Assembly: GCA_043732705.1 (NCBI GenBank)
Contig: JAYTHE010000011.1
Span: 71,605-135,604 of the forward strand
Source: Candidatus Omnitrophota bacterium
GTDB lineage: Bacteria > Omnitrophota > Omnitrophia > Omnitrophales > Aquincolibacteriaceae
DNA length: 64,000 bases
Direction: 5' to 3'
Below, piece by piece: positions 12,301-64,000 of this stretch. How positions within the stretch are numbered: the stretch's first letter is position 1; every line of letters starts with the position of its first letter. The notes beneath the pieces are model-generated. The model did no database searches and was not told the origin of the DNA. It saw nothing but the letters and a program-made list of their open reading frames with translations. A program made the position numbers and the translations under genes.

Positions 12301-15300
12301 AATAATTTTTCCGTGATATTGCAGCCACCCCATAGTGAGCAGCTGGTAAAGAACCCCCAGCATTTCTTCATTTGCTAAATTGACTTCGTCGAGCAGAATT
12401 AAATCACCTTTTTTGTAAGCCGTAATAAAACGCCCTTCCATATAGCGCAACCCGATTTCATGATTCATTAAATAGGCGAGCGTCCGAATCTCATCAGCCT
12501 CTTTTTTTTGATTTTCGTCAAACTTTACAGCCCCTAACTGAGTCAGCATCTTCCCACGCTCGATTCGATTCTGAATACGTTGAATCAAACGGCTTCGAAT
12601 CGCGGCTTGTTGCTTCTGACGCATCTCATCGCCCGTCGCAGTTCCGATAATTCCCGCACGTTCCTCCTCCGTAAAAAAAGCAGACCAAAATTGACCTTCG
12701 TTGCCTGTGAGCATCCGGCTTAAAGCTTCTTCCAGGTCATTCCATTCGCCACGATCCAAAGCTTCTTCCAATCGCTCCACTGCCTCTTTCAAAGAAATTT
12801 GCATTTCATAAGGCTGGAAAGAACCAAACAAATCAAATTCGTCCGTGCGTTCGTTGATTTGAATGCGGGTATAGCCGGAACCAGTAATCTTGGCTGCCAG
12901 AGCCGCCAGCGTGCTTTTGCCTCCGGCAGTGTAGCCAAATTCAAGAATCGGATTAAAACCTTTTTCATCATCCAAATCCATCGCGAGCAGCAAATGCGCA
13001 AGATTTTTTCGCGTGGTTTGATTAAAAATAACATCTTGAGCAATGTCACCCGGCTCAAGCGGCTTCTTCAATTGAATACGCAGCAATTCCCACGGCGGCG
13101 ACTGTTCCGTGCTGTGAGCGATAACTTCTTTTCCCGGCAACCTCTCACCCGTATCTGTCGCATTTTCCCGTTGAAGATATTGTTTTATTTTTTCACGGCG
13201 TCTTTCGGTAATAATAATTTCGCGGCTGCCTGCCTCATAACCGGTAATATCATAAATGGAGTCCAATTCTTCTTTAGGATCAATGAGACGGTTCGCGACA
13301 AGCGCCATCCGAACACGGCTGCGGTCTTCGTCGCTGTTTAAGCGGTGAACATAACGACGGCGCAGAGCAAGCTCAAGCGCTTCGCGAATATCCCGTTTAC
13401 CGTCAAAATAACGGCGGGCGATTTTGAGAGTTTTCTTAAGATCGCGTAAACTGACATAATAAGCTTCATCGTTGACTTGCCCGATTTCGTGTTTTGTCAC
13501 CATCTGCTCAAACTCATAATGAAAATTAACGACACGCACGAAATAACTAAAACATTGCATGAGTTTATTAAAATCATCCAGCGTATTTCCGGCATGATCT
13601 TTGTAAAGATCAAAAAGTTCCTTTAATAATTCAGCCGTACCCGAACCCGCGGAGCGGCTGATTTTGGCGATCACTTCCAACATACGGTCATATTCCTGCT
13701 GATTTTCAGAAAGTCCGTATTTATCGCGCAAAGCACCGAATGGAATTTGATCAAAAGCTTCCTGTCCGACATATCCCAAAATCAACCCGATTTGCTTGAA
13801 GCGATCCACGCTTTGACCAATAATTCGCAAATACTTATCGCCGGTTTCTGTATCACGCCCTAATAATTTGCCGGTAACAACTCGCAAGTTCTCGCGGCTG
13901 GTGTTTGAAATTGCCGCAAGCGCTTCAAGCAAATCCAGTTCGGACGCCATCGGAAAATAATTTTCCTTAAGCACGCCTAGTCCATTCTGACAAATTCTTT
14001 TAACTTCACCGAAATCAAGCAACGGACCCAAATTATCTTCAGGATTAATGCGAGCCGTATTAAACGTGATCGTCATCATTTGGCGCAAATGCCGCATGTC
14101 TTTTTTGACCAGCGCTTGCATTTCAAGCTCATCCCCTTCTATTTCTTCACGCGCATTCAGCTTATAAAGCAAACTTTTCAATCCTAATGAAAAAACAGCC
14201 CCGATGATATTTGCGTCATAAGGACGAAGTTCCGGATCTTTCTTGCTAGCCTCATTTCCGGGAGTCACTGCGACATAATCACGTCCTGAATAATGCAGCC
14301 TGTATAACTGCGAAATTTCACGCATTACTTTCAAATCCTCAACTTCCCCCATGTCTTTGCGTGCTTGCTGATACCAATCTTCAAATATTTCCGGCCAATC
14401 CTGGCGCGCAATGACATGCTCAAGCACTTCGGTCAATTGTGGTTTTTTCGCTAAGAGATAATTTACGACAAAGTGATCCAGCTCAAAATCCGCCACTTTT
14501 CCCGATCGCCCATAAAAAGTTTTCCATTGAAATAGCGATTGCAGCCTTGCCGTAAATACCTTCAATTTTTCCGGAACAGATTCACTCAGCCGGTCTGTCG
14601 TACCGGAAAAAATTGCCGCATGCACGTAGTTGATACGCTCATTCACTTTGAGAGGATCTAATTCATCACTATTTTCATAATGAGAAATCAGTGACTCCGG
14701 CAAAGTCGACAAAACTAAGTAAGCACGGAGCTGCCGCATCCATTCATCCGGATGATCGATGCGTTGACGCGCTTCTGCTTCAATCGATGCCAACCGCGTG
14801 TGCATATTTTTTTCAGCTTCATCCCAATGATGCGTCATCCATTCGGGTAAGTCGCGGATAAAACCTGCCATTCCCGATTGTTCTGCTTCAGCACGAAACT
14901 GCGTAATAAAATTGCGAATTTCTTTTTTAATTTCACGGATTTCAGAGCGTGCTATTTTTTTCTTTAATGAGTTTACGGGCGCAGCGCCTTCCCCCATAAG
15001 CCACAAGGGATTGCCGTCTGGCGAACTATCCGCCGGACGGACACTCTTTCCGGTCACGCGTTGATTCCGGAACCGCCATGCTTTTAATTTGTTTTGAAAT
15101 TCACCGGGATTTTCCCAAAGCTGCAGAAATTCTTCGCGCGGAATTTCTTCCCAGTTTGCCGTATTGTTAAACTCCAAAAGAAAGGCTGCCAACTCGCGCA
15201 TCTTGTCAGGATGATTTTGCAATCCGTCCAAACTATCCACAAACCATTTAAAGTCTTCCTGAGTCACGATGTAACGACTATCAACCAAAGCTGATAAAAT

Positions 15301-18300
15301 CAGCATTGCGCTTAAAGCATTTGCACCGAAATGTGAAAAAAGTGAGTCGGGGCGCAGGTCCACAACATGATCCAAGGTTGTTGGGCTATCTCTCGGGCTC
15401 GCCGGCGGTAGGACTTGACGCATCAATGCGCGCGTTTCCTGGGGTGCTATTTTTAAACCGGCAAGCGGCAAACCCCAATCCGTACCATCAATATTCAAAA
15501 GCCGGTACTTTGTATCGCTTGTACCGTCGGCCGGGACTTTGGATTCCGATATTTGAAATTTTGTACCTGCCTGCTTGAGCGGATAATCTAAATCGTCTGC
15601 AATAACGTGGCCGTCGCCCAAATTCCGCACACTAAATTTCTTTGTTTGTTTATTTTCAATCCAAAGCCTGCCACCCATAGGATCAAAACTCGGCACAAAC
15701 GATTTTTCCCATTTTTCTAATTCAACACCGGAAGCAACATCCCGCATTTCAAAATGATCTATCTTTTCTAATAGAACCAATTTTTCATCCGGAGAAAATT
15801 GAACGCGCAATGAGTCATTCCCGGCAAAAGCAAGCGCTTGAGACACCCCTCGCAGCGGATAAACAAATTCAGTGCTATGTTTAAGCCCACCAACACTGCG
15901 CTGAACGATGCGATAAGTTCCTTTGGGTGAAAATCGAAAACTTTGAATTTGCATATATTGCTGCAGGCTTCTGGCTGACCGCACGTCATACAATTCAAAT
16001 AAGCCGCCCGAATGCAGGATGAGCGAGCGACTGTCAGGAGAAAAGGACGCATCCAGAACACCAGTCATATTGAAACGCCGCAATAATTTTTTAAGCCTCA
16101 AATCATATAAATTAGCCCGTTGAGTTCCGTCCAACTCAATCACAAGACAGTAGTTTTTATCCGGCGAAAAAACAACGCTTGAAAAAGCTTCGTTCGGATC
16201 GACAAATTCATCATTTTTATCGAGCGCAACTACCTGTTTGCCAATGTCGGTTAGTCCGGTCAAAGTAAAATATTTACCATCAGGAGAAAATGATCCGCCA
16301 AATTCATTGCCAATTTGCCATGCACCATTTTTGCTGCCCGAACCCTGACCGAATTCGTGCAAGCGTTTTCGATGCTCTAAATCCCAAATTTCCGCGGAAG
16401 ATGAATCCTGGATTGGCATAAATAATTTCTTGTCATCTGGAGAAAAAACCGCTGAATTCGGATCTGATCTTTTTCCTAAAGAGTAAAGCCAGCCCTTGTC
16501 AATCCAGCTGTCATCAAAATTGATTTGGCGCTGGCTTAATCTAAAGATCAGCACTTCTTTAACCATCTCATAAAACGAACGTAAGCGCCAATCGCCGGAT
16601 GCGCGCATTTCGGAACGCGCTGGCTTCTTTTCGTCCTCTAGCCACAAAGGATCACCGCCGGGCAAATCTTTGCCGGTCTTTTTCTTGTCATCATCCGCAG
16701 GTTGACGAGCATCGCGTTTTTCCCAATCCTGGAACCGTGCTTTAAAATTTCGCGGATGCTCCCAAAGACGAACAAAAGTCTCGCGAGGCACTTTTGACCA
16801 GGGCGCCAAACCTTCTAAATGCTCCATAAATTGCGCGAGCGCTTCCATTGCCGACGGGTCAGTATTCAGCTCATCTAAGCTTTGTATAAACCAATTCAAG
16901 TCCTGTTGCGTGAGAATATAATGAGCGTTAATCAATACACCCAAAATCTGCATGGCATTAACCGCATTCTTCTCAAAATGTCTAAAAAGCGATCCGGGCT
17001 TTAAATCCACAACAAAGTCCGATGTATTGGCCTCATGCCTTGGAGATTGCCAGGTTCGACGAATTAAGGCTACCGACTCATCACCAGCTATTTTGAGGTT
17101 GCGCAGAGAATGCGCGAGCATCAGTTTTTGATCATCATCTAAAAGCTGATAATCACCGTCCGTACTATCTCGAAACATTCTTCCACGGCTTGATTGAAAA
17201 TTTACTCCCTGTCTTTCGATGGGAAACTCCAGATTATCCGCAAGAATGACGCCGGTTTTCAAATCACGAACGCTAAATCGTTCTGCGTTTACATTTTTAA
17301 TAAAAAGTCGTCCCGCTACGGGGTCAAAACTCGGCTGCTGCGGGTATTGAAATGCTTCAATCAATACTCCTGTCTGAGCGTTTCTTAATTCAACAATATT
17401 TTTTTTCTTCAACAGCGCAAAAGCTTCATCGGATGAGAAATCAACATGCTCCGTGTCACGGTCAATCCAGGCGAGCGATTCCGTTCCTTTTATTGGATAA
17501 ACAGACTCCGTCGCTGGACCTCGCGACCGCGGTCTCTTAATAATGCGGTAAGTTCCGCGTGGTGAAAATCGGAAATTTTGAATCTGAGCATAATGCTGGA
17601 TCAAAGTGCCATGCACCGGCTCACGAACTTCCACTTCTTCGCCCGCTAATAAAGAAAAATAACGGCTATCAGAAGAAAAAGCCGCTTGTTCAATTCCGCG
17701 CAAATTAAAAGTGCGCGGCGCTTCCTTGGAATCCAAATGGTACAGAGTTGCCTGCTTCCAATCTTCTCCGACCGTCAGACAAAACCTACCGTCCGGAGAG
17801 AACACAACCTGGGAAAACCATTGAGTTTCAAGAACAAAACCATCTGCGGGATTAAGCGCAAAAATGCGTTTGATGCCGTTCCGTTCACCTTCGATTAAAT
17901 ATTTTTCGTTTGTAGAAAAGTGAAGGTTGTAGACAAAGGCGTTGGACGTAAAATCAGCCATACTTCCTGCTTGAACTCTTTTTAACCGGCGCAAAAGCTG
18001 TAGTGTTTTTAAATCCCAAATTTCCATCCAAGCCCCGATCGCAGCGCAAAACTTACTCCCATCACGCGAAAAATCAGAGAAACTAAAGTCGAGTTCGGGG
18101 CGCGTCCGCCAGTCGAATTCATTTTTTCGGCCTTGGATTTCTTTGTTTTTTCGATCCTCGATCAAAGTAAAGGTTTTAATTTCTCGGACCAAATCCAAAA
18201 ATGTGCGTGTTTTCCAATCACCGGCGGTACGGACTTCTGAACGCTTTGAAGCCTCAGCCACACCCTGCAGCCAAAGTCCCGCATCACCCTTGCTTGCGTC

Positions 18301-27300: not shown

Positions 27301-30300
27301 AGCGTCGCGCAACATGGCCAAGGCTTCGGTTTTGTCGACACGGCGCAAAGCAGTATCCAATAAATGCGGCGCCGTATCAGGACTTTCAAATCTGAATCTT
27401 TCACAAAGAATCGCAAACTCTTCTAGGTCAGACGGCGGTATTTTGCGAATGGATTCCAAATAAAAATCATAACTTTTAAGGTCAGAAATCAGCTTTGACC
27501 GTGTCAGCTCATTCAAAAGGCTTAATACAAAAACCGTGTTCCGCCCAAAATCATTCCCCAATGTCCGAATCACCTGCGGCAACCTTTCTAAATCGAATAT
27601 TTTCGGAGAAAGACGACTACTCGCGATACCGCCATATTCAGCAAGAAGCTGGCCTTTGTTTTTGCGTAAAATTTGCGACTGATCTTTCTCTAATGGCGAC
27701 ATCCTCACCGGTCCGAGCGGAAATATTGTCGTATGATTACCTGAATCTAAAATTGTAAAGTCGCCATGTCTATCTTGACGCCATGCCATCCACTTTGTTC
27801 CGGGAAAAAAGAATGCGCTGTGACCTTTTTCAAGAGTTGTGTGTTTAAGACTCCATGTCCGCGTGTCATAAACCATATCGTTTTCGCCAACCCCATGAAA
27901 AATAACCGATGACAAATCGGGTGAGAGTTGAGAGCCGGATGCAACCACGTTAAAGCTTGTGTAGGCAAGCGCACTAAGTGAAAACACCTGATATTTCCAT
28001 TTGCGCCCGCTCGTATCGGCCATTGTCATGACCAATAATTGATTGTTGGGCAAAGCATTAATACTCGCCCCGCCCGGGAAAATATGTAAATTTGTACCAT
28101 CCACGGAATACAAATCTATATCGTTGTAACCTGGCCCAGGTCTTCGAATTAAAAACCAATGGCCTGCAGGATCTGCCAATTCAATATGACCGGGATGAGC
28201 GGAGTGATCCCAAACCATTTCCCCTGAAACAGTTTCAAAAACTTTATTCCCATACTGATACCATCGACCGTCATTGAGAAACCAAGGACGCTCAGCTTGG
28301 GGAAGACTCCGCAATTCTCGCTGGGTTTTCAAATCAAACAAATGATATTGTTCACCCGTCAAAATAAAAACATGCTTTAATGAGAAAATAAAATGATCGA
28401 ATTGCTCGGTGCTGCCAAAAGCATTAATTTCATGCCCCTCTAAATTAGCCAAATAACATCGCCCGTCTTCAATTTCCCCCTTTACTAAGACTATATGTCT
28501 TCCATCCTTGGTGAATTGGATTCCATTGCCTCCAAAATCACGAGCGCTTTCACCGCCCTCCTCATGATTTGTCTTGAGGTCAATGATTTTAAATTTTTCT
28601 TTTCCTGCATAGTCGCTCTCAAGATCAAAGCCCACGATTAAATGCGTACTCAAGATACCGCCTTCAGATCCGTCAATTTGATTAAAATGAGGCGGCAACA
28701 TATTTTTACCCTCGTCTGAGCGCCAGCGGCGAACCGGCATCACGCCCTCCAAATCAACTAAAACAACTTCCTGCTTATTCCAAAGAACGAGCCAACGACC
28801 ATCCGGTGAAAACTTTCCCTCGTCTGCTTCTGCTAAATAGTTTTCAACTGAACCAAAAGTTTGAAGCCAATTTTGGGTAGCCGAATATTCTTCCGGTGAA
28901 GTTTGGCGCTGTTCACTACGAGCACTTTTAATTTTTACATTCTCATCAGACACCGTTTGTCTGAATTCCGAGCGTGCTGGCTCAAGAACGGCGGAGTGCT
29001 CCGTCGCTAACCAAAGATTGCGCGGATGATCATCGCCGGCTGCGCGGGATTGAGTTGCGGCAGGCTTGCGAGAAAGGCGCGCACCCCAATCACGCAACTG
29101 TGAATTAATATGCTCCAAGCTAGGTAACTTGAGCATAGCTATCAATACCGCCCGGGCTGCCCGCGGCAATTCGCCAAGAGAATAGTACGGGGAAAGCAAA
29201 TTTTGAATCATTAATATGGTTTCAAGCGGCAATGCCTTCAACCATTTTTTGTACTCGTCAAAAGACTGCTCGTCGTGAATCACACGAAATTCAAAAAGGA
29301 TACTCAATAGATCAAGTTTGAGCTCCCAGGCCTCACCCCATTCATGCTTTATTTTGGGAAGCATGTCGCGCAGAGACTGCGAATAATAATAGGAAGGACT
29401 GGCAGACAATTTCCCTTTATCAAACCTACGCGACATAAAATAAGTGAGCCAACCATTAAAAGGATCAACAGTAACCAATTGCCAAGAGCCAGGCAGTAAA
29501 AAATCAGAACCCGTTCCATTTTTCACGTCAACGACATGAGTTGTTGTGCTTTGACTACGATCCGGCTTGTCATTAAGGTAAATAAATTGATGATTAACGG
29601 CGAAAGCATTTCGATCCGCAAAATGCTCATTCCAGCTCCCTTCCAGAGTTCCGAGATAGATTCGCTGAGGCCGCTGACGTTCAGGGCTCCAACCATATAT
29701 TTCAAGTTGGACAAAAGGCTTGCCGGAAGGTGGCTTTTGATTTGTAAAAAAAACAAGAAACTCATCTACCCTGAACATCCCCGTAAAATCTTTCGGCGCG
29801 GGAATCACTTCCCCTGAAATAGGCTCATAAAACTGCTGGCGAACTTTTGAGCTTTTTAAAAAAATCCAGCCGGAGAAAGGCGTATGCTTCATCGTGTCAA
29901 CATCGGATAAATCCATGGTTGCCGGCGGCTGTTGTAGCGGCAAATAATGCCCGTCGCGATAACGGTAGAAAGAAGTTTGCTTTTGGGCGTGCGCTAGCCC
30001 CCTAAATGCTGCGCGTGCAGCTTCGTCTCCTTGTACATAAACAGCTTGCGCCACTCCTCCGCCGAAGAAATCAACGTCTGATACTTCATATCCTCGAGGA
30101 GGTTTGAAATCAGCATGGGGCCGGCGGGTATTTATATCCATCACCCAATTATTTCTCGCAAGCCCGCCGCCCTCATTAAAATAAACCGCTCCATCCTCCG
30201 GTGAAACACGGATCGTAAAACTATGACTTGGTGCCGTAGAAGATAATGGAATTCTTTCACCGGCCTTGATCGCATCTCCATCTTTTTTAATAATAATAAA

Positions 30301-32460
30301 GCTGTCTCGTTGGACGACATTCGAACGACCCGGATATCTCGCATCAGGGCGGTCTAAAAATATGACATTCCCTCCCGGATCAACAGATGCCACATTGATG
30401 TATTGATTCAGCAAATGCCAGCCATGTGTATCCCAAATTTCAATTGTAAAATCATTTCGAATAACAAGCGCCAGCCGTCCGGCGTTTGAAAGATAAACCC
30501 GATCAATATCTTTCATTAGCCATTCTTTTTCAACCGCTTCCGTTTTCAGATTGAAAATTAAATACTTCTGGTTACTTCGATCCAAAATGACTGCCAACTG
30601 GGAATGAGGCAAAAAACTAACGTAAATATTATCTTCACGATCGCCGTAAATAACGCGGCGTGTCGGCCAGTGGACAAGCCGATATCGGCCCGTCTTCAAA
30701 TTCTTAAACAAAACCCAGTCTCCAGAACGGATGTGAGGTTCACCCCAAAGATTAGCTAGTTTAAAATCTTGTTGAATTTTCTCAAGGTCGTGAAACCGCA
30801 TTTCTGAGCGCGACTTTGCTTTTGATTGAAGCCCAGAAACTAGCTGAGAAACAACAGGATTAAGATTGACGCGCCGGTGCGTTAGTAATGCTGCTCCGGA
30901 AAGTGCAGCGGGTATATGCGCCTGTCCTAATACTTTCGCAACATTAGAGGGAGTCAGTTGATTGTGCATTTTCAAACCTTTTAACCTCAGCACAAAATCT
31001 TCGACTTCCTTTTCTAGATGCTGCCGCTTAACGACCATATCCCTGCCCGCTTCGTTTAAAAGCGAATCATACCGTCGAAAATCTAAAATTTTATTTTGTG
31101 CCGCTAAGTCTCGAATCAGCTGGTCATGCCAATTCTTGACGGTTTCTGGCGGTGCATTGTCGAGCAAATCATCGCGCAGTGCCCGGGCAAATGATTCAAA
31201 TAACAGCAATTCTCCGCCGCTTCGCACAAAGGATTTTCTCCACGACACGTCACTTCTCATGCGTTGAGTATAAAATTTTTCAACCGGCAAAGTATGGATA
31301 CGCGGCTGAATTACCGTATAAGCGATTCCGGCCTTCCGTAATTCTCCCGTCAATCCGGCAGTATGAAATCCGCCCACGACAGCGATTTGATTTCGTCCCG
31401 CACGCCCGGCAATGTTTTTTAAAATAGTCTTTTCACGACGCTGAGCATTTTTGTAAAACGAGACATAGACATTCACGGCTTCCGGAAGCTCTCTTTTTTG
31501 AATGGCATTCCAATCTTGGCGTGATAATTCCAGCGAAATTAATTTTCTCATCATCCGCGCGCGGTCAATCTTCTCATTCAATTGTGCAACATCCGGTAAT
31601 TTCAGCCACGGCGATTTTGTGCGTAATCGTGCTGACTCCATTTCCAACGATAAATTTTCAGCATTTTGATCAAGCCAGGCTTCGAAGGCCGGGTAGCGCC
31701 GGTTAAACTTCATTTTGCCCGCTGCGAGCAATAGTTTTTCAAGCCGGCTGCCGCGAGTGATTGCCTTTTGCTTTTCAAGCGTCTGCAACAGCAAGCCAAT
31801 GTGCGCGGGCTCACTCGCAAAAAGCGCTTCGGCCTGCGTCAATTCCCATAAAGCCGGCGGGTCGATTTTTTTTGCCTCGCAATAAAGTGCTTTTATTTTT
31901 TTATCAAGCAGCGGCAAAAGAATTTTCTTCTGTTCTGAGGCTTGATAAAAAAGATTTAACCCCTTTTCATAATCACTCCACTTTTCAAGCCCTGAAAATT
32001 CTGCCGTACCCGTCTCCGTAGCCAAGGCAGCTCCGGCCGCACCCGACAACTCACCGCGCGCATAAAATTGACGCAAAGCCCGGATTAGGTTTTTCCGGTC
32101 AGGGAAAGACTGAAAAAGTTGCGTGTCCAATATACCTTCCGCCCCTTCAACCCCAATCTGCTTTACACCGTAGCGGCGATTTAAAAAACGAACAAGTTGG
32201 TGAATATTATTCTGGGCATCCGGAATATCATGCGCATCTTGAATGAGTATCACGCGCAGCTTAGAGTTCTTTAAAAAATTTTCTGTAATCCTTCCAAATT
32301 GCTTGGGAATAATCAAACGCGTTAAATCCTGGTACGCAATTGGGTTGGACACAGGCGTGGCATAAACAGGCTGAACGATTTGTGTCGTCAGAAGGCACAC
32401 CACAAGAATCGCTACGCACCCTGTATTAAACAGTATTTTATGAAGGATTTTTTGCTTCAT
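1..32460 (-). CDS. Giant membrane-anchored midasin-like protein, >=10,820 aa, 3' end beyond window start. Order N to C: signal/TM anchor; ten beta-propeller/helical super-repeats; six tandem AAA+ (AAA_5/MoxR-type) domains; zincin-like HExxH linker; low-complexity tether; VWA/MIDAS domain; further propeller/helical module.
   Basis: ATG at 32458-32460 on the minus strand. An in-frame TGA lies 33 codons upstream (32557-32559) with no alternative start between. The N-terminus MKQKILHKILFNTGCVAILVVCLLTTQIVQPVYA is hydrophobic. I scanned the minus frame (plus-strand triplets starting at positions =1 mod 3, looking for tta/cta/tca) through 1-11040 and 15001-15600 and found no stop. The ORF track lists no ORF in this frame anywhere in 1-32460; the other minus frame and all plus frames carry only short ORFs. 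Hand-translated motifs agree (see domain features). Confidence 0.8.
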   Translation of the reverse strand, partial: MKQKILHKILFNTGCVAILVVCLLTTQIVQPVYATPVSNPIAYQDLTRLIIPKQFGRITENFLKNSKLRVILIQDAHDIPDAQNNIHQLVRFLNRRYGVKQIGVEGAEGILDTQLFQSFPDRKNLIRALRQFYARGELSGAAGAALATETGTAEFSGLEKWSDYEKGLNLFYQASEQKKILLPLLDKKIKALYCEAKKIDPPALWELTQAEALFASEPAHIGLLLQTLEKQKAITRGSRLEKLLLAAGKMKFNRRYPAFEAWLDQNAENLSLEMESARLRTKSPWLKLPDVAQLNEKIDRARMMRKLISLELSRQDWNAIQKRELPEAVNVYVSFYKNAQRREKTILKNIAGRAGRNQIAVVGGFHTAGLTGELRKAGIAYTVIQPRIHTLPVEKFYTQRMRSDVSWRKSFVRSGGELLLFESFARALRDDLLDNAPPETVKNWHDQLIRDLAAQNKILDFRRYDSLLNEAGRDMVVKRQHLEKEVEDFVLRLKGLKMHNQLTPSNVAKVLGQAHIPAALSGAALLTHRRVNLNPVVSQLVSGLQSKAKSRSEMRFHDLEKIQQDFKLANLWGEPHIRSGDWVLFKNLKTGRYRLVHWPTRRVIYGDREDNIYVSFLPHSQLAVILDRSNQKYLIFNLKTEAVEKEWLMKDIDRVYLSNAGRLALVIRNDFTIEIWDTHGWHLLNQYINVASVDPGGNVIFLDRPDARYPGRSNVVQRDSFIIIKKDGDAIKAGERIPLSSTAPSHSFTIRVSPEDGAVYFNEGGGLARNNWVMDINTRRPHADFKPPRGYEVSDVDFFGGGVAQAVYVQGDEAARAAFRGLAHAQKQTSFYRYRDGHYLPLQQPPATMDLSDVDTMKHTPFSGWIFLKSSKVRQQFYEPISGEVIPAPKDFTGMFRVDEFLVFFTNQKPPSGKPFVQLEIYGWSPERQRPQRIYLGTLEGSWNEHFADRNAFAVNHQFIYLNDKPDRSQSTTTHVVDVKNGTGSDFLLPGSWQLVTVDPFNGWLTYFMSRRFDKGKLSASPSYYYSQSLRDMLPKIKHEWGEAWELKLDLLSILFEFRVIHDEQSFDEYKKWLKALPLETILMIQNLLSPYYSLGELPRAARAVLIAMLKLPSLEHINSQLRDWGARLSRKPAATQSRAAGDDHPRNLWLATEHSAVLEPARSEFRQTVSDENVKIKSARSEQRQTSPEEYSATQNWLQTFGSVENYLAEADEGKFSPDGRWLVLWNKQEVVLVDLEGVMPVRRWRSDEGKNMLPPHFNQIDGSEGGILSTHLIVGFDLESDYAGKEKFKIIDLKTNHEEGGESARDFGGNGIQFTKDGRHIVLVKGEIEDGRCYLANLEGHEINAFGSTEQFDHFIFSLKHVFILTGEQYHLFDLKTQRELRSLPQAERPWFLNDGRWYQYGNKVFETVSGEMVWDHSAHPGHIELADPAGHWFLIRRPGPGYNDIDLYSVDGTNLHIFPGGASINALPNNQLLVMTMADTSGRKWKYQVFSLSALAYTSFNVVASGSQLSPDLSSVIFHGVGENDMVYDTRTWSLKHTTLEKGHSAFFFPGTKWMAWRQDRHGDFTILDSGNHTTIFPLGPVRMSPLEKDQSQILRKNKGQLLAEYGGIASSRLSPKIFDLERLPQVIRTLGNDFGRNTVFVLSLLNELTRSKLISDLKSYDFYLESIRKIPPSDLEEFAILCERFRFESPDTAPHLLDTALRRVDKTEALAMLRDAHARFKRMPAVPESRGGRDPRTDDHIWFAKKNPRRSELRSLNAENFEQFKTALLRWDNHDKAGSEIKKTRGFYTENGRWFVYGDGDVIKQVDLTNRVKDRIFKGAIRDHSKTKLVFSRDGQYGIFDFETGSENLIPESVVERKSEHDDDLFRLSSDRKYFITNSEKLLKLFDFDTGHQILEKISIKEIHFTHAEGDQYALVLDDKKQWHWVHVPTGRILHSFDINPRLDVNDIDPKLTPNLSGNGKWIIYAGKIYETKHFTFKSAPRGDDYQVLQGDFLIRQHSTRTNAGRQVRLSATDLTDGKKYSLLTTPSAINVQFGNYRLWFRAGEGKTFSTVFDLNKKEVKTFPQEMSFAEYDEEYFMATYSDGRSFIYDNTDLKPVAQLEDGPYDTEQGFSINDGIALVEKDGNRRLLDAKTGKVIYYLGYRPHSFSMHPTNGDFMVSLPLHDPDFRGKIRGNEKLWNWKNRNSEIDYLQSRFHDIAPYVMHILSWLMIGGVIQTSADYDAALKLLQDLNPSTYNILGLCIERLVRYFELSGGGKSFSFLNTLKQFKDSSPYALQILLLLLNSKVIRGEQDDELVLSLLQRVQPDQFLILLSKLTDLLKHPQFAAEKHRDVILHFLNAENPAQMAKLLRQRWERKPGEASAPDSGASPTTPDSIWLTSSDQRSEMRYADFKKTFLTHDFNLPRLWGVPYGSGGDWLVFHRSQRQNRLVHWPTRRVIYGENENHIELRPQANRALILEYEKRYIAFDLKTEKIVKEWPLSDVKHIDLSWDGRLACVIHKDLRMEVLDTQDWHQLNEYKNVTSVRFIQNGIFLERPGSGKDDNPDEPGMVRNIEPDSIVVIEKAGDRLKAGEKIPVPVNATQMSVRISPDGKVVFISPIPKAYHRRSGYLPSWIMDYESRRPHPDFIAPHPKWSPLTVDFFEGQLARVTYVNPQDGKDQETILYRYRNGHYLPLEQPAHTAALSDIDKIKSTPFPGWVFLQSKTSRQSFYEPNTGKVIETPSGFIFQDAGNFSIFYKNYHSALAPFAEVKVFSWDAASREPRIIYQDNLKGGDYGRGGDKFFDARGPNLCILESGPNLHVIHAEKKSHEVIALPDGFHVRSFLAMDDWPLIYLVNPVGSPNSDPQYEAMLLYSKQMHQDDSQLKQELGGEAWLSKLFLLALFDELGLIYDESTFALYFQAFGHIKSNAAFKDIWDAFIQRSNAINFKSLEVRASIENFLRNPGEGKLGTILEHLAARATRLRGENSRPKNPGDVATDQELWLTEHALAEQRSELRQISAAQFEALKPVLHEYLALEKYTSNPQGAEFSKDGKWMLVSNQIQGANPQSTWLVNLATGKAVKHWLSGKLHIHFTDLNQVLITDSDSPQSIGKTPLLYDLSTGVETNLLKLTGERSLVSLRQANSARYLYAVGRKKLYIFDLQKTELIFSYQVPSGDHPLDATHLDDGRFIVQWSQRFDLISSKGTLIRNFSSDNAGIGTVRVSNLTHRLVTGKKIYDLDTFKPLSMPDHISNFIDSSGQWLSLYLSRSIILFDLKTGKKSVDFKRFEGFVDVKFDPSGRMAYFYKWPFRSQPSGESAYGEWHQWDLHRQDWTGRRLLSYDDSSIRISPKGKWLLASLGISRDKRREQLAFIDPLSFKVISRFNLPRVPGQVYFIAEFSRDEKYAYVKPKAGFNHFLVECETGKVVLKVPEVGIFQSNNVFEQRELYAPQYLANHHPSRLIPFGNDDALQNLKKDFGLAYPYVLNLLARAYQWGWIASADEMNRLLKLWSGAGRAQIELASVAMEQVLRSQRFRRNQDLPSIQHALNNAQCGKLMEALRDRFQRQVAAPHIPDLAKPSDPTGNSPALWLAGTEHGQGGVVVRSEMRPIRVSKKDVAGMKTELERFHWPAKERFRAAQLIEGGKYLLASKHERGNGDGFELVFRVEGERLIPLDYFPRDKQFYSVGNGMVFYNNLTFGSYEPAEGLLDLATGAVVDTFPFPTSTIFHRFHSEFPLIILHDEKAEQHVLRNYQTHENIVVQPDVDIYAAIEFLGKERVVVRESASRRDRIKGMMFERIARSGLEFILQEESHLNLAANDLAALYGSTGLVMTYPMNNQFRSENDFHFRAYDMRTGESVKEFEDKLVLVSDRLGQVHTRDDNGHHMLWEWPSKKIIREWDDKWGSHEKFLNDPDEYFNLIQTGMDASHYLGELSGHKNSNHVRMLAFSSDGKTYAERKGMDTFELHETSTRRLIRRIPGRTTFYFSRQGEYLYVRIYDMRNITQGGQQMIMDAVTGKILQPYRQIDLTHPPSAPGDTMLVNLMGHHFAKWLPIKITDMLSRKIFNRWKFDGIFILNILAWLNQLHLLETKADWQFYLNHLQQIPCEDLKGISIALEAILFQHEEADAKNMVASILRSGSPDSFLTQMQLYLSRIERKRSGKEIDLGLPKPGTNELWLTGVLGGGSAAVVLVKRRSESRKISTKDYEAFKKALQDWSSPEKLLPGAQESYFSKDGRWWILSNSSWTLVMDLTGAVQARRVPGKMVRATNEKLLLLSGRAFRNYDLVSGAEQAIHTGIAEVAWVSPGEKYFYFKSSGAKRGLIEFKTGKPPVFLPGPVEAVLFPAGRKEDDLALVLDVENHLFWMNLSTGEKLHGFGKQPEVIDKSGVSDDGQWILLNNDVYETKHFTSRALPRHFKAYNYIFFLGSFLVLRTDGEQDPKGEQHLSVLDLRSGEEFPLMTDISITIQQDPQNRWLWFQGSKNHAPSAEQFKSVFDLRSRTIRQLSEPVSRPEYSETGERFAALTPDGRATVFDNVTLAPIAKLKSKRGNSNFEFSPDGAVVTTSDAEDEENSRYLFDSQTGEIIFYLGIPYDGDQAKDFHARWGEYAGRLITWVDEDDYHYQFKLWNWKNLNPEISKIQRRLKDDAPYVMHLLASLFDAGVIRDSADYSLVTQLLKKIPAKILPLAALGIEKIIRNSKFNLEKGRTVIFDILKRHDDAAALAMATLERMSREQGEAGRAEKLMPPDASKGDAGLWLQGVAEASKRSEVRTAGDWKTRTFLDLVREIKTFTLIEDRKNKEIQGRKNEFDWRTRPELDFSFSDFSRDGSKFCAAIGAWMEIWDLKTLQLLRRLKRVQAGSMADFTSNAFVYNLHFSTNEKYLIEGERNGIKRIFALNPADGFVLETQWFSQVVFSPDGRFCLTVGEDWKQATLYHLDSKEAPRTFNLRGIEQAAFSSDSRYFSLLAGEEVEVREPVHGTLIQHYAQIQNFRFSPRGTYRIIKRPRSRGPATESVYPIKGTESLAWIDRDTEHVDFSSDEAFALLKKKNIVELRNAQTGVLIEAFQYPQQPSFDPVAGRLFIKNVNAERFSVRDLKTGVILADNLEFPIERQGVNFQSSRGRMFRDSTDGDYQLLDDDQKLMLAHSLRNLKIAGDESVALIRRTWQSPRHEANTSDFVVDLKPGSLFRHFEKNAVNAMQILGVLINAHYILTQQDLNWFIQSLDELNTDPSAMEALAQFMEHLEGLAPWSKVPRETFVRLWEHPRNFKARFQDWEKRDARQPADDDKKKTGKDLPGGDPLWLEDEKKPARSEMRASGDWRLRSFYEMVKEVLIFRLSQRQINFDDSWIDKGWLYSLGKRSDPNSAVFSPDDKKLFMPIQDSSSAEIWDLEHRKRLHEFGQGSGSKNGAWQIGNEFGGSFSPDGKYFTLTGLTDIGKQVVALDKNDEFVDPNEAFSSVVFSPDKNYCLVIELDGTQRANLYDLRLKKLLRRFNMTGVLDASFSPDSRSLILHSGGLFELYDVRSARSLQQYMQIQSFRFSPKGTYRIVQRSVGGLKHSTEFVYPLRGVSQALAFAGNDSLRVQFSPDEKLVLLEKIDHFEMRDVASGVELEKWEKSFVPSFDPMGGRLWIENKQTKKFSVRNLGDGHVIADDLDYPLKQAGTKFQISESKVPADGTSDTKYRLLNIDGTDWGLPLAGLKIAPQETRALMRQVLPPASPRDSPTTLDHVVDLRPDSLFSHFGANALSAMLILSALVDSRYIVTQEDFKWFVDSLDGLQNHPDKMRELAAFLLEFNNTANWEEIPREEFLQLWENPGEFQNKLKAWRFRNQRVTGKSVRPADSSPDGNPLWLMGEGAAPVNSLKKKIARSEIREIKKEIRNFITQFRAEAEQSGMAGFIRDLPEWMTHHWDEAEKNMHTRLASIEAEARQRIDHPDEWMRQLRAYLVLSTLPESLISHYENSDELDPLKVNERINYVHAAIFSGTTDRLSESVPEKLKVFTARLQSLFQWKTFYGRSGKVADFELDHFVVNYLLAKKPQLTEVLEHVIARQDWPEIFEDWYQQARKDMGEVEDLKVMREISQLYRLHYSGRDYVAVTPGNEASKKDPELRPYDANIIGAVFSLGLKSLLYKLNAREEIEGDELEMQALVKKDMRHLRQMMTITFNTARINPEDNLGPLLDFGEVKRICQNGLGVLKENYFPMASELDLLEALAAISNTSRENLRVVTGKLLGRDTETGDKYLRIIGQSVDRFKQIGLILGYVGQEAFDQIPFGALRDKYGLSENQQEYDRMLEVIAKISRSAGSGTAELLKELFDLYKDHAGNTLDDFNKLMQCFSYFVRVVNFHYEFEQMVTKHEIGQVNDEAYYVSLRDLKKTLKIARRYFDGKRDIREALELALRRRYVHRLNSDEDRSRVRMALVANRLIDPKEELDSIYDITGYEAGSREIIITERRREKIKQYLQRENATDTGERLPGKEVIAHSTEQSPPWELLRIQLKKPLEPGDIAQDVIFNQTTRKNLAHLLLAMDLDDEKGFNPILEFGYTAGGKSTLAALAAKITGSGYTRIQINERTDEFDLFGSFQPYEMQISLKEAVERLEEALDRGEWNDLEEALSRMLTGNEGQFWSAFFTEEERAGIIGTATGDEMRQKQQAAIRSRLIQRIQNRIERGKMLTQLGAVKFDENQKKEADEIRTLAYLMNHEIGLRYMEGRFITAYKKGDLILLDEVNLANEEMLGVLYQLLTMGWLQYHGKIIEPETSRRPRVIATANPSSYAGRKRMSEAFMNRFEILWVKEMNGQEMFEILYGTMQKDLIRLRGYTPEHFMRAQGESEIEFQKRIDSYLQQEFGVTQRELIALADTQRGLNQYLLGGRFNMGADSNYMFTIRDYLRIYRDILERKQVGQELNLESWIRESFMLFSGVLLRSDVYLLNSDAIKNDLSYERLRNIFCVQMGDLFRGQFSTAQDAFDNLIERNFKTIEMRHNDQSKTVSIDGIETHGKARTVRRWTEPLVFVESTKYAMTQVVKGFRQNQPVLVVGQSGGGKSDVIADAAYKLGWDYVSVSLGDATLEDLLGSMEYDKKEKRFVYRPGVLIKAMNQGSALVLEEINMAKPGILEILNEYFDEGTFTNPFTLQKVKVSPDFRLFATMNPVDGVTGQNSGRVHLSPALRSRFREVWIPAEKSASEMDEILQKLFEQYDLKFDSAVSLKIQAFFKEYREVFRHRGEPAYYTSLRDLRRVVKAMGYWNARGMKMDAALARAMHRVYELRMQNAADGETVRGVLKKANIKQFEVKVPRYHLDAGRLQFFDDQQLVAEFDFGVQSSKLENELRHEMEAAMQGMPRQQIDSAVQVKLNNTLSDSRLVENRRTLENLMTLAESTALENSDVQNGKFNPVLLIGETAGGKSSLVRFFALNLLRQGYTRIQFSERTDAYDLFGSYEPREMNISTDQAVRVIQNSMEGGQWVKLKRAMDLIQYGQSAISDDQTLSAEWDDIWSAEIAAMREKITEWLRTADSSDPQIKEDAIRKIKSLALLTHNGVLNVELDFREGRLLNAMKHGHVTMLDEMNIANEEVLAVLYQLLTLGFIETYNKDSGQVEKIYPAAGFKLIATGNPTTYEGRNQLSEALMNRFEMQFVKNMPAAEAAEIVETEMMRNKKVFGGTTIEHDVISKLAAFQDHLNKHLAEGDFPSARAGTTQGYMFTLRNLKKIIKNTGYLIRMRGRAPPPSARELSSMILEQAYLEYSGILGRSPIETAAFRRLFIAPEFFPNFNPSQIKISFSSGIDRISRRPTVEVGGFRLRGRHYERGGPSQDAQVVEELADSEQTDLIRLAVAKGLMDPRQAVLLIGQSGGGKTEIVADLARRLNWKYVSVSLANANMERLVGSFERDEETKKFRYVAGVLVQAMQEGSILVLEEINMMPSGLVEILNEYFDEGTFTNPLTGVKIKIHPNFRLFATMNPLQGVTGASGGRAGFSPAMRSRFSEVWVAHEKTSGEVEAIIRKKFSNRQVEVSKKTVEEIRRTYFAFAAKVEGQQIGKENDDNEGYYASLRDVVKVVDWVAQDMRRGIAEEDALRHALKRIYDRRLGNETDHALVRKDVFPQYHFENQDYAWHDEGDAYHIYRGNLFIASVSKAILQERGFVMTEEARQQMGYLLDGFYRDPEYARRFNPMMLLGETSGGKSTMIELAVHLWNQNVTASEQVGFRRIQMNPRTDEYDLLGSYQPVELNLSLQESYQVLQESLQGRNFRVLEKSLQTLGFSREQLQRLAGIPAGHQVSQQELIKKFIREYVLKGARQNNGRLRDLTRSIAALVHNGSIGIDLEFKKGLLLEAMGDRDQGVAGQVVLLDEFNLANEDAIGILYQLLTLGYIEYQGRKIFPGTGFQLLVSGNPASYSGRNRMSEAFMNRFEIMRVPEITPQEMAEILMHKYSLQETNISMELLVQLATMQKDIHDRSRHNYFEQFNIDDTYRFALRNLERIVKDAKVRAQHNPIAGADGTQYADYQAALLREAWIEYAGLLGQTTIDDYPEMKARMKNSASRSPATRRAKPVASKKKKKAEAETSPESVPPAEALPDNLSKLRKLFEQYLNWNPESDDFFKTFHRLRRVSNEGVDWLELGGVWVPRLTVYDILEGTLKEIQIEMGQVALTYQGGQPALPKLDPEALRSYFEQEMEAARLGGDERSPKAILYDKVQAWAKQEFGTYPDLMKAVLKLIHERLYTQADRIEKLVELQSTQIERIQIMKLFRDGGLVERRNEKGEVVWVHQSQPLALIGQSGGGKTEMLADIARELGWAYVSVALGAATVESLIGYFVIDETTGTFQFKKGDLIRAMESGSLCVLEELNMADSAVIEILNEYFDRGTLTIQGQKVQVNIHPNFRLAGTMNPLEGRTGMNSGRVPLSPALRSRFREVWVRSQRSKGEQYRMMLGGIQSFVQAMIERGLPEESSTDLDVAEALGGTRRQIAGMSGEDIPHGGSPFLAMSSQSSSSVGQPGGILKMAKPIAAFGEGGLPENLPSKGEWEKMPVEKKKQIYEDTFSAVTKGMDITLKASEEGWAWQPSTRTLFYDEKMINVLSLNALIGVGIHEAMHRYGTRYLYQFAEFFDPFGVAAHVFNILEDGRIENWARMLFQGAATPLKATNDEVIFKEKNPEELIQKMVFGKPGEPIDDVNALLNFFLFMAKRGWDADAMQMIPNFIKKLGERDPELAADAQELVDGGIFGGGTEQDMVGVLNDYEEQKHLTAEEKSQLRRRISPMRGVFSLVPVRKNDRGVWEFDRYPSEQSLQELSLQQGVLIREIILPRVYKWFVKSVQKGMQGQGRPGQGQGGKGQRGQKSGQSQSGKKGQKGEPGEGDEKGESEEGDASATMPRSGKGEGNQPPQSGQTKGWKEWAREYRTLPDHVRRQILDEMKKEYEDEGKAVDRTAKDAKDFQQAKRDHEGARPMSERDRLMAWPLISRMINELTGYLRDLILNSTRPKWERHKKKGRLNVQDLIQAIAHGFSNGLNVFEHRIIPQKKNIKFTIIVDESGSMAGMGEPGQKAEQKATDKGYKTLIGVTLIAEVLEALGIDFAIRGYGTGTHLHKRFKGQKIPDDKRKEYERPGHEAIPDGYSTKKDRDAVVDDLHNSIGAYGGNDEGPALEAAIRDIEKAGGDRHFVMVLTDGVGDIKSIQTILERIRKNNGLIGRTKTDFLGIGLGDDTAIVPDVYGHEWSIYLHDDEVSKLPAALKTLLQEIIRSVFYNRKGSGNFSKFQRAALAGILGAASQAVNSRSKARSEMRSTGKISLKAAQELVREWTWLDRKRSGVKRDTILFTEGGRSYFGQRRDWKQSYRYTDIKTGQRKPAELTRDQLEEIARKYFDAHGYPWRNKYNHVQGPSHDADYSPDGKLRYFQADYYHHDGGEQYPQTFVGILIDSATLEPVTKYGTNFRHCTFSQNGFLALSDLKGSRVTIFEQSTGRQLETYYGFEHAEVSPDQTKVLLWKFNYPDKKPAEIWDRKTRTRIVAFGKDPSFPKFVGNDYVTYNENAESGPGNPGNWYVESLKTGHKLLIRKNFSGERKIWTVDASAVFMVGPDETLKPSMGIPDHPLYWIDQAGKLRKVMRTSEYGIAGFDGEYLLLNIANHPRLLPLAKWFQDPLLRSLRHFFGGDDYYGLEFLAQVLRLKLIRNDKELELFMSRLREFYRTSKGHRFSFVAFIASRLMQFNGHRLTEQERTTLRDITLRQATEQVLPLLQQLLERHQRMSMPPEASTENQDGDKGSLWFSGGPVAAVVELQRSEMRLPLWVSQLYQKTVWKVFKRWQPDLSEGYQKVSPEEKAAYDARWRQLFIDASWSIQSLHAAWKLSRHFIYSKWDLSQRNSVLDFIRVMRPQVSFSDFPAWLWVWLYTNLRDVPFDLAKPYIRRVQVLARDMDLSHPQWIRVIFDATKIELGHIRAVFQTSVFQIWNAQQQELFWEYYFDGMTLSLKTEREFMKKLNAERAFFNEIQKILISVKSAEQAEALHRIFADLHLKTQGQPVGKGRRKTTERMQLHAAVNKLLEQFYARATRQPDSSVQPEPRTGDSGSLWLGNGTKRSEARGFGEAIFTAFRWLAVPFLMGWYRLFHKSHAIEEPKIQPHYSISNMRLTAIMRELSPYSGAFWMLNQILQNEYFNKLTYLERSFFAELYARCFALIPLDFGSVVAVVYFFRGLRLFHIDRSRGATARHPRELIFTEDEIRRIAAEFKILSEPQFLPDAATQVAFVQRDADHHWANYIVQIYSLISRPAYLALPEEIRRKLLRGMVQGQELTRNNDFPPTPLFGKLQHGGSSDEALVAGFFDLWLSIPDQPLQRALLDIWSRRPGAALNLVVIYGMLQKSQMGSVMEQQDWLNLLV
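3400..4060 (-). other. VWA domain with an intact MIDAS motif, at the C-terminal side of the AAA hexad.
   Basis: Verified translation KFTIIVDESGSMAGMGEPGQKAEQKAT at 3961-4062 (DxSxS = DESGS). Downstream reads ...AYGGNDEGPALEAAIRDIEKAGGDRHFVMVLTDGVGD. Confidence 0.75.
4450..4680 (-). other. Low-complexity Gly/Gln/Lys/Glu-rich tether between the linker and the MIDAS domain.
   Basis: Encodes MQGQGRPGQGQGGKGQRGQKSGQSQSGKKGQKGEPGEGDEKGESEEGDASA. It is visible on the plus strand as a run of cct/ttt/ccc/gac-rich triplets. No stop codons. Confidence 0.7.
5200..5340 (-). other. Zincin-like metallopeptidase motif (HExxH plus a downstream Glu) in the linker between AAA6 and the MIDAS domain.
   Basis: Hand translation verified: VLSLNALIGVGIHEAMHRYGT (5281-5342), then PFGVAAHVFNILEDGRIENW (5221-5280). 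This is HEAMH with a Glu 28 residues later. Confidence 0.4.
5800..6340 (-). other. AAA+ domain 6 (AAA_5-type, variant Walker B) of gene B.
   Basis: Walker A LALIGQSGGGKTEM verified at 6241-6300. LCVLEELNMADS verified at 6061-6100. FRLAGTMNPLEGRTGMNSGRVPLSPALRSRFREVWV at ~5850-5960. Confidence 0.7.
7300..8120 (-). other. AAA+ domain 5 (AAA_5/MoxR-type) of gene B.
   Basis: Walker A PMMLLGETSGGKST verified at ~8031-8076. Walker B VVLLDEFNLANEDA. FQLLVSGNPASYSGRNRMSEAFMNRFE at ~7350-7440. Confidence 0.7.
8580..9110 (-). other. AAA+ domain 4 (AAA_5-type, variant Walker B) of gene B.
   Basis: Walker A RQAVLLIGQSGGGKTEIVAD verified at 9001-9060. ILVLEEINMM verified at 8821-8868. FRLFATMNPLQGVTGASGGRAGFSPAMRSRFSEVWV at ~8620-8740. 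Confidence 0.7.
9650..10450 (-). other. AAA+ domain 3 (AAA_5/MoxR-type) of gene B.
   Basis: Walker A VLLIGETAGGKSS at ~10347-10385. Walker B VTMLDEMNIANEEV. FKLIATGNPTTYEGRNQLSEALMNRFE at ~9700-9775. Confidence 0.7.
10950..11520 (-). other. AAA+ domain 2 (AAA_5-type, variant Walker B) of gene B.
   Basis: Walker A VLVVGQSGGGKSDVIAD verified at 11401-11460. Walker B position reads ALVLEEINMAKPG (EE instead of DE), verified at 11221-11280. FRLFATMNPVDGVTGQNSGRVHLSPALRSRFREVWI at ~11045-11160. Confidence 0.7.
12150..13050 (-). other. AAA+ domain 1 (AAA_5/MoxR-type) of gene B.
   Basis: Walker A FGYTAGGKST at ~12913-12939. Walker B LILLDEVNLANEEM at ~12365-12405. Sensor/arginine region PRVIATANPSSYAGRKRMSEAFMNRFE at ~12180-12300. 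Confidence 0.7.
14900..31000 (-). repeat. Ten tandem ~1.75-kb (~590-aa) in-frame super-repeats in gene B. Each has a PD40/WD40-like beta-propeller plus a helical segment with a conserved LWL...RSEMR motif.
   Basis: Verified motif copies, approximate minus-strand positions: 30810 KSRSEMRFHD; 29040/28950 NLWLATEH...PARSEFRQT; 27210 HIWFAKKNPRRSELRSL; 25320 SIWLTSSDQRSEMRYADF; 23520/23470 ELWLTEHALAEQRSELRQI; 21760/21710 ALWLAGTEHGQGGVVVRSEMRPI; 20010/19950 ELWLTGVLGGG...RRSESRKI; 18290/18240 GLWLQGVAEASKRSEVRTAGDW; 16660/16610 PLWLEDEKKPARSEMRASGDW; 15000/14950 PLWLMGEGAAPVNSLKKKIARSEIRE. Spacing is 1630-1910 nt. Blade-like FSPDG[KR]/FSKDG[KR]W segments recur between the motifs. Confidence 0.65.
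32341..32460 (-). other. N-terminal signal peptide or signal-anchor of gene B.
   Basis: Hand translation: MKQKILHKILFNTGCVAILVVCLLTTQIVQPVYATPVSNP. A basic n-region, a ~20-residue hydrophobic core and an AxA-like site (VYA|TP). Confidence 0.5.
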
Positions 32461-32604
32461 TTTGTAAGTAAAATTGTTGATACCAAAATGTATATGGCAG
32501 AGCTTAATATTACAAAAAAGAGGCGTTTTGAATTGATCATTCTTCTTCGCTCTAAATCAAAACATAGCAAGTTTGCTCATACATACGATGGCAAAAAGTA
32601 CAAA

Positions 32605-33827: not shown

Positions 33828-33862
33828 GAATTTAATTAGGTCCTGTTTTTAGAGAACTACGT

Positions 33863-63997: not shown

Positions 63998-64000
63998 ACA

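Follow-up and report, generated by a model that had tools for sequence, protein, structure and literature searches.

A bipartite peptide motif, an LW element followed by RSE-Φ-R, separates the modules of a giant protein encoded by a Candidatus Omnitrophota bacterium; in this protein and its relatives, it is a family-wide short linear motif of inter-module linkers. We consider it possible, if somewhat short of probable, that the motif marks sites of endoproteolytic processing and is read by a dedicated, co-evolving factor. The protein, p1, is encoded in a stretch of 64,000 nucleotides of contig JAYTHE010000011.1 (assembly GCA_043732705.1, positions 71,605 to 135,604), referred to here as the window. 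The minus strand of the window contains two giant stop-free frames, p1 and p2, and all window coordinates below refer to features on that strand. The p1 frame is free of stops over 1..32556, and its earliest start codon is an ATG at 32460. This gives an open reading frame (ORF) at 1..32460 of more than 10,820 amino acids (aa), with the C-terminus beyond the window start. The neighbouring p2 (34337..64000) encodes 9,887 aa, with the N-terminus beyond the window.

We count 14 copies of the pattern RSE.R in p1, where its composition would predict 0.25. Ten N-terminal copies are found where the initial annotation had placed them, 542–633 aa or 1.63–1.90 kb apart. Copy 1 is RSEMR (30796..30810, aa 583), copy 2 is RSEFR (28960..28974, aa 1195, with LWL 14 aa upstream), copy 3 is RSELR (27187..27201, aa 1786, with IWF upstream) and copy 4 is RSEMR (25288..25302, aa 2419, with IWL upstream). 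Then, each with LWL upstream, come RSELR (copy 5, 23467..23481, aa 3026), RSEMR (copy 6, 21703..21717, aa 3614), RSESR (copy 7, 19936..19950, aa 4203), RSEVR (copy 8, 18229..18243, aa 4772), RSEMR (copy 9, 16603..16617, aa 5314) and RSEIR (copy 10, 14935..14949, aa 5870). An extra RSEQR (28906-28920, aa 1213) lies 18 aa past copy 2. The three further copies that had been reported beyond the MIDAS domain are also present. RSEMR (copy 11, 3268..3282, aa 9759) is right behind the VWA domain, SLWF...RSEMR (1771-1785, aa 10258) ends the module U11, and SLWL...RSEAR (883-897, aa 10554) ends a helix-only module. Copies 10 and 11 form the N-terminal and C-terminal borders of a conserved motor core, and the position of copy 10 is conserved in the relatives. 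One more copy, RSELR, falls in p2 (35534..35548) between a GNAT domain and the C-terminal region, where 0.06 are expected; its context there, GTKRSELR, resembles GTKRSEAR in p1.

The form originally proposed for the motif, [ST]LW[LF]...RSE[ML]R, has to be relaxed in its upstream half. This half reads [LI]W[LF], and the residue before it varies; it is found 5-16 residues ahead of RSE in 11 of the 14 p1 copies and is absent at aa 583 and 9759. The consensus for a whole linker is ...R-x-[RK]-x-P, then an acidic/Pro/Gly-rich stretch, [LI]W[LF], 5-16 variable residues and [small/basic]-R-S-E-Φ-R, directly followed by the amphipathic helix of the next module.

The constraint on the motif is at the peptide level, since the Arg and Ser codons vary freely (4–6 different codons) and the codon tables show no conserved nucleotide string and no Shine-Dalgarno-like sequence at the motif copies. 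One can still ask whether the DNA or RNA is the conserved element, with translation starting internally at the Met of RSEMR, or with recoding or recombination sites, the peptide conservation being incidental. Met does occupy position 4 in 6 of the 14 copies, and the Glu codon is GAA in all 14 of the window copies. However, L, F, V, I, S, A and Q are found at position 4 as well, 71% of all Glu codons in the gene are GAA, and the motif Glu codons of the relatives are divided between GAA (45) and GAG (18). Together with the codon freedom at Arg and Ser, this makes a nucleic-acid or translation signal very improbable, and internal starts or a Shine-Dalgarno-like RSE codon string in particular are ruled out by the codon tables.

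Between copies 1 and 10 lie nine homologous modules, U2 to U10 (14935..30810), of 547-638 aa each. These are U2 (28960-30810), U3 (27187-28974), U4 (25288-27201), U5 (23467-25302), U6 (21703-23481), U7 (19936-21717), U8 (18229-19950), U9 (16603-18243) and U10 (14935-16617). The periodicity that had been noticed by eye is kept in automated self-comparison. BLASTP aligns full-length pairs (U2/U5 at 34%, U4/U8 at 28% and U9/U10 at 38%), with weaker links for U3, U6 and U7. In leave-one-out searches with hidden Markov models (HMM), each of U2-U10 is recovered by the profile of the other eight, with E from 1e-25 to 1e-79. The number of super-repeats had been given as ten, but it is nine: by leave-one-out HMM the segment at aa 33-587 is not homologous to the modules. 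Since the first segment is unrelated, nine modules are bounded by ten motif copies. Two more units follow the MIDAS domain: U11, a propeller and helix module (1771..3282; aa 9759-10262) whose propeller was assigned by eye, and the helix-only module (883..1785; aa 10258-10558). A module profile built without the C-terminal copies detects aa 10115-10262, comprising the helical segment, linker and motif (E 7.7e-11), and also the motif region at aa 10513-10558 (E 1.3e-4). In U4, the helical segment is duplicated, with profile positions 464-590 matched twice as two consecutive helical segments. A 208-aa fragment from ENA (P0149) is ~70% identical to the U4 helical segment over the aligned part and has the same duplication, which indicates a close relative with propeller modules in another metagenome.

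The structure of a module was predicted for U8 with AlphaFold2 (AF2), using a shallow alignment consisting of the nine modules (mean pLDDT 71.6, pTM 0.62). The model has a helix at residues 9-20, 34 beta-strands over residues 34-431, five helices over residues 438-534 (~100 aa) and a tail at residues 538-574 that contains LWL and RSEVR at pLDDT 34-37. The strands form repeated four-stranded antiparallel blades that close into a ring. In the prediction, a module starts with a helix, continues with an 8-9-bladed WD40/PD40-like propeller and a five-helix bundle, and ends in a disordered linker. The initial annotation had taken the motif for a boundary element and not part of a domain core, and in the U8 model it does fall outside the folded cores, in an inter-domain linker with pLDDT <40. 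Recognition of the blades by family libraries is poor. Over the first 5,900 residues of p1, the score for Pfam WD40 is 21.5 bits, short of the cutoff of 27, and Beta-prop_THOC3 reaches E 5e-10, far under its own cutoff. The top word-search match bears the name "PD40 domain-containing protein", an exhaustive search with the module profile retrieved thousands of PD40/WD40 proteins, and WDR5-type propellers are among the structural neighbours. The modules are ordinary propeller and helix domains.

Relatives of p1 were found by a genome scan using an alignment of the even-numbered AAA domains of the core as the query, which yielded 19 loci. Genome and metagenome scans with single or near-single queries found nothing. 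Word-indexed protein searches with module, boundary and HExxH-MIDAS alignments returned no true relatives, only generic PD40 proteins, and in the exhaustive profile search PD40/WD40 proteins crowded out the rest, with only P0149 and a second metagenome protein, P0022, being informative. In 18 of the 19 loci, the even-numbered AAA domains are 52-69% identical. These 18 are in metagenome-assembled genomes of the PVC group, mostly Candidatus Omnitrophota, with one from Auribacterota and one labelled Chlamydiae. The part in common, by BLASTP, is the core of p1 (3232..15039; aa ~5840-9775), which is 40-48% identical to the PVC-group homologues.

The motif extends to the variable flanks of these relatives. 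RSE-Φ-R occurs 2-11 times per protein in L003, L006, L007, L010, L015, L016 and L018, as a rule with [LI]W 5-30 residues ahead of it, and the modules between the motifs in these Omnitrophota homologues are unrelated to propellers. Over all ORFs of the window and the relatives, the motif totals 56 copies against 2.9 expected. No copy falls inside the AAA-MIDAS core of any family member, and the copies nearest the core bracket it at a nearly constant distance: 5870...9759 in the window (3,889 aa), 855...4716 in L005 (3,861 aa), 1358...5278 in L006 (3,920 aa) and 1326...5359 in L010 (4,033 aa). The description as a family-wide linker motif follows from these three properties, in that it is kept in the variable flanks, never enters the core and brackets the core.

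The residues of the motif change in some lineages. L005 has RAEVR with PIW upstream, so the Ser can be replaced by Ala; a universal Ser-dependent chemistry, such as an N-O acyl shift or phosphorylation, is unlikely for that reason. L002 and L009 have an alternative boundary signature, [ED]DWL.R...[AG][KA]SLG, and L004 has E[DE]EIF...AKSLG. When the N-terminal borders of the core are aligned, RSE-Φ-R, KSELR, RAEVR and EDEIF...AKSLG all share one position, just before a conserved helix. The placement directly behind the VWA domain is similarly shared, with a copy there in nearly all members. P0022, an unrelated JGI metagenome protein of 5,036 aa with a signal peptide, encoded on a 196-kb contig, has 13 copies of (P)E[DE]EIF.x.[AG][KAR]SLG. 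These separate PD40 propellers, helical segments of the window type, hydrophobic segments and enzymes, and one pair exactly brackets a Methyltransf_28 domain. P0022 also has winged-helix repeats and a caspase-like His...Cys pattern (FFNGHGG...IIIDSCYS), the latter seen by eye only. Some C-terminal motif copies in the second ORF of L007, at aa 1883 and 2320, have the repeated element ...GEK[AV]RMR.RTLDLPLTP.LSP.GRGRSS.RSEVRTK.Y... in place of the LW half, which suggests that there may be further sub-variants of the upstream half. In L015 (10001-18580), three identical 256-aa tandem repeats (aa 1526, 1782 and 2038) each end in ...EDLWLEKPGDGARSEVRSEVQ. It would seem that a module and its motif were duplicated together only very recently, unless the repeats are an error of assembly.

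Some of these features would also be expected if the motif were passive punctuation, serving as a helix cap or a soluble, extended linker that is duplicated along with its module and has no dedicated reader. The amphipathic helix always begins 3-8 residues past RSE-Φ-R (the helix at 9-20 in the AF2 model), and the units of duplication coincide with the motif, each of the L015 repeats having one copy. However, four of the five motif residues are invariant even though the window modules are now only 17-38% identical, and the motif flanks unrelated module types across genomes and proteins. Moreover, the motif class switches as a set per genome or protein (L004, L002 and L009), which is predicted by co-evolution with a reader and not by a helix cap. 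We therefore regard passive punctuation as unlikely.

The bracketed core has in order a helical pre-ring region, six AAA_5 domains, an HExxH domain, a Gly/Lys/Glu-rich low-complexity stretch and a putative VWA/MIDAS domain. Pfam AAA_5 matches six stretches in the C-terminal half of p1 (E 5e-102), Walker A motifs are at aa 6541, 7034, 7393, 7840, 8166 and 8763, and among PDB structures the ring matches eukaryotic midasins best (E 2e-75), with CobS at 3e-9 and NorQ at 5e-6. The initial label of a midasin-like motor is justified by the six AAA_5 domains, the six Walker A motifs and these PDB matches. The AAA domains (5557-13056; aa 6500-9000) alternate between two types. AAA1, 3 and 5 have G[YE]T[AS]GGKS, a long insertion and ...LDE.NLANEE...LYQLLT. 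AAA2, 4 and 6 have GQSGGGK[ST] and ...VLEEINM...EILNEYFDEGTFTNP, and are 44-49% identical among themselves. The ring, judged by these repeats, looks like a triplicated two-domain unit. The MIDAS motif of the VWA domain, DESGS (4009..4023; aa 9512-9516), is conserved in the relatives, and Pfam VWA reaches only 16.5-18.2 bits against a cutoff of 23.8. From AAA6 to DESGS is ~500 aa, consisting of the HExxH domain and a ~100-aa stretch rich in Gly, Lys, Glu and Gln.

The HExxH motif itself, HEAMH (5326..5340; aa 9073-9077), lies between AAA6 and the MIDAS motif. A lone HExxH in the 10,800 residues of p1 is about what chance would give (0.44 expected). That the embedded motif, which the initial annotation had weakly linked to autoproteolysis, is nevertheless more than chance is seen from the family. 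HE[AS]MHR, ~24 residues and FN.[LI]EDGRIE.W are invariant in all 14 of the family members covering the region, within a conserved domain (4657-5709; aa ~8950-9300) that has ~38 further invariant positions over ~340 aa. Judging from this conservation, the region is a genuine domain with a zincin-like signature, and the motif alone makes it a candidate peptidase. The domain of one member has a weak YgjP-like match (E 0.07), and an assignment to the DUF2201_N type of putative metallopeptidase with VWA was tried and gave no hit.

The propeller array is not part of what the relatives share. It has no counterpart in any relative's visible N-terminal flank, and the weak helical-segment or blade matches in L005 and L018 are only C-terminal to the MIDAS domain. 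Because the array is absent from these flanks, the fusion of propellers is, as far as the compared loci tell, lineage-specific cargo and not a property of the motor. The parallel that had been drawn with midasin acting on WD40 substrates does not hold up, both for this reason and because of what precedes the propeller. The midasin substrates Ytm1 and Rsa4 have a ubiquitin-like (UBL) domain before their WD40 propeller, which carries the MIDAS-binding Glu, whereas the p1 modules, judged by the U8 model, have a single helix there. No ubiquitin-like Pfam hit was found in p1 aa 33-10000.

If the motif is a recognition signal for a dedicated, co-evolving factor, cuts at it would release the modules and the ~3,900-aa motor core from a polyprotein-like precursor. 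The candidate protease would be the conserved HExxH domain adjoining the AAA ring, which is the sole candidate visible in the window, and an AAA+ ring next to a zincin motif would be an FtsH-like pairing. That such a signal would be read by a co-evolving partner is argued by its independence of module type, its presence in different giant proteins and the switching of its class as a set. The copy at a domain boundary of p2 further argues that the reader would be common within a genome. We rank processing first because the sites are in flexible linkers, they bracket functional units, they stand at boundaries of unrelated domains, and they switch class by lineage. In addition, the literature on Omnitrophota giant proteins suspects cleavage with no cleavage points known (10.1101/2023.11.21.568195), and there is a precedent in the MARTX toxins discussed below.

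Several observations weigh against processing. The HExxH domain has no Pfam, NCBIfam or PDB family match in Pfam scans of each member and a PDB profile search, and neither p1 nor those parts of p2 that were scanned gave a recognised peptidase family in Pfam, NCBIfam or PDB searches. The disorder of the linker comes from a single AF2 model of moderate confidence with a 9-sequence alignment, and disorder-promoting residues are only slightly enriched in the linkers (0.61 versus 0.57). A core that needs ATP fits poorly with what appears to be a Sec-type N-terminus, as to both the topology and the compartment of any processing. Finally, four invariant positions out of five plus an upstream element is a more elaborate signal than most protease sites, and it suits docking equally.

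Under docking, the linkers would stay uncut, and RSE-Φ-R with its LW element would bind the MIDAS domain or the central channel of an adjacent propeller. In this way the bead-on-a-string array would be organised or tethered, or the motor could take hold of its own extension. We hold this possible but on the doubtful side, in either form. The Glu and both Arg are invariant in the 56 copies while the Ser can be Ala (RAEVR in L005), a copy is found right behind the VWA domain in nearly all members, and docking motifs are typically bipartite, with a variable spacer, and lie in flexible regions. In integrin ligands of the RGD and GFOGER types and in the Rea1-UBL contact, an acidic residue completes the metal coordination of the MIDAS, as the invariant Glu between its Arg residues might do here, and p1 has the MIDAS motif DESGS. 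ARS/ARA "Win" peptides bind the central channel of the WDR5 propeller, the type found among the structural neighbours. On the other side, the [KA]SLG equivalents have no acidic residue, yet the MIDAS motif is retained in their proteins. Giant proteins that have no AAA/MIDAS core or no propellers can carry the linker motif too (P0022, p2 and the modules of the relatives), and AF2 docked neither terminal motif copy onto the U8 propeller.

Processing could be extended to a more specific scheme. In it, W...RSE-Φ-R and ...SLG would be a processing code, and the midasin-type ring, the zincin-like domain and the MIDAS domain would together form an ATP-driven maturase that recognises the linkers and cuts giant precursors, itself included, into modules. 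We consider this combination quite unlikely. If true, it would supply a function for a prokaryotic midasin relative and a dissection rule for proteins of 10,000-147,000 aa.

The segment ahead of the modules, U1 (30796..32460; aa 33-587), ends in the first RSEMR. The relatives L005, L014, L015 and L017 share it, and the conserved pattern is [QE]D[AV]H...EGA...R[DE]...GGFH (30796-32358; aa 67-587). U1 has no Pfam, NCBIfam or PDB match, even with its homologues and a profile. A ChaN/TIKI/TraB-like fold, possibly a protease, was considered by eye and found no support from any tool, and a single-sequence AF2 model of U1 was unusable (pLDDT 36). The N-terminus of p1 (32346-32460; aa 33-70) resembles a cleavable Sec signal peptide, with a basic n-region, a hydrophobic core (a hydrophobic segment is at aa 37-55) and the sequence ...VQPVYA|TPV. 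A start resembling a Sec-type signal peptide is also seen in the homologue L005 and in P0022.

The gene for p1 is preceded by ~900 bp of non-coding DNA. Two small ORFs (153 aa and 135 aa; 33366-34270) separate the giant genes, and each has an N-terminal hydrophobic segment. The arrangement recurs on a 12-kb Logan contig from run SRR23617244; there are no precomputed Pfam hits for the small ORFs on that matching contig, and no family-library scan was made of them. p2 has almost no Pfam matches. It does have about six to eight tandem repeats of ~112-122 aa (...GWGIQ.Q.I..RNGEFFARA...AYATP.ML...) around aa 3000-3900 (~52300-55000), hydrophobic clusters resembling transmembrane segments at aa ~4880-5910 and ~7810-8125, the GNAT domain at aa ~9350-9410 and two HExxH motifs at aa 9080 and 9626.

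The Omnitrophota have the largest known proteins, and whether these exist as single chains or as cut pieces is an open question. A motif that is confined to linkers, conserved across genomes and co-varying as a set is a concrete and testable candidate for the cleavage points. Even without cleavage, it supplies an objective rule by which giant proteins can be divided module by module ahead of structure prediction. In the literature searched, we found no description of the inter-module motif, of its alternative classes or of how it brackets a bacterial midasin-like core, and all three appear to be undescribed. A midasin-like ring of six AAA domains with a MIDAS domain in PVC bacteria is also relevant to the idea that six AAA domains were first fused in early eukaryotes (PMC3495828).

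Among the closest known systems are the described Omnitrophota giant proteins (West-Roberts et al. 2023, 10.1101/2023.11.21.568195; a 2026 preprint, 10.64898/2026.06.07.730766). p1 shares with them ORFs of more than 10,000 aa, two in tandem, a signal-peptide-like N-terminus and a sequence that is mostly unannotatable. AAA_5 is among their listed domains, and the closest homologues of the p1 core are all from the PVC group, chiefly Omnitrophota. In p1, Pfam finds no C39 or S8 peptidase, dockerin or SecA domain, and an inter-module motif is not reported in those two papers. The MARTX and large clostridial toxins are likewise very large modular bacterial proteins with short conserved sites in unstructured linkers, and they process themselves by an internal cysteine protease domain; in MARTX, the Leu residues at which processing takes place are in the unstructured stretches that separate the effectors (PMC2900308). 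The MARTX site is a single Leu, whereas in p1 it would be the bipartite W...RSE-Φ-R (or ...SLG), at which cleavage is only inferred, and p1 showed no C80/CPD domain, RTX repeats or InsP6-binding domain.

Propellers joined to helices are also known from eIF3b, eIF2A, the Utp proteins and the COPI/IFT "protocoatomer" proteins. The helical part in p1 is a ~100-aa bundle and not a solenoid, and its modules, with WD40 matches under the Pfam thresholds, are concatenated nine times within a motor protein. The protocoatomer-like coat proteins of the PVC group have a propeller and a long alpha-solenoid, whereas the p1 module has five helices only.

For the core, there are two models. Aravind and colleagues proposed membrane-proximal degradation systems of MoxR and VWA, with or without a peptidase (PMC3495828). 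Like these and FtsH, p1 has an AAA+ engine of the MoxR/midasin clade, a VWA/MIDAS domain for substrate binding and possibly a peptidase; unlike them, it is a single fused chain with six AAA domains, and its HExxH domain has no match among the known peptidase families. The other model is eukaryotic midasin (Rea1/Mdn1), which, like p1, has six AAA domains in one chain; it also has a C-terminal MIDAS (DxSxS), for which DESGS is the candidate in p1. The ring and the MIDAS of midasin are separated by a ~1,700-aa linker and a long D/E-rich region, as compared to ~500 aa with the HExxH domain in p1. Unlike midasin, p1 has odd and even AAA domains of two alternating types, and its core is set between huge and variable N-terminal and C-terminal arrays of modules.

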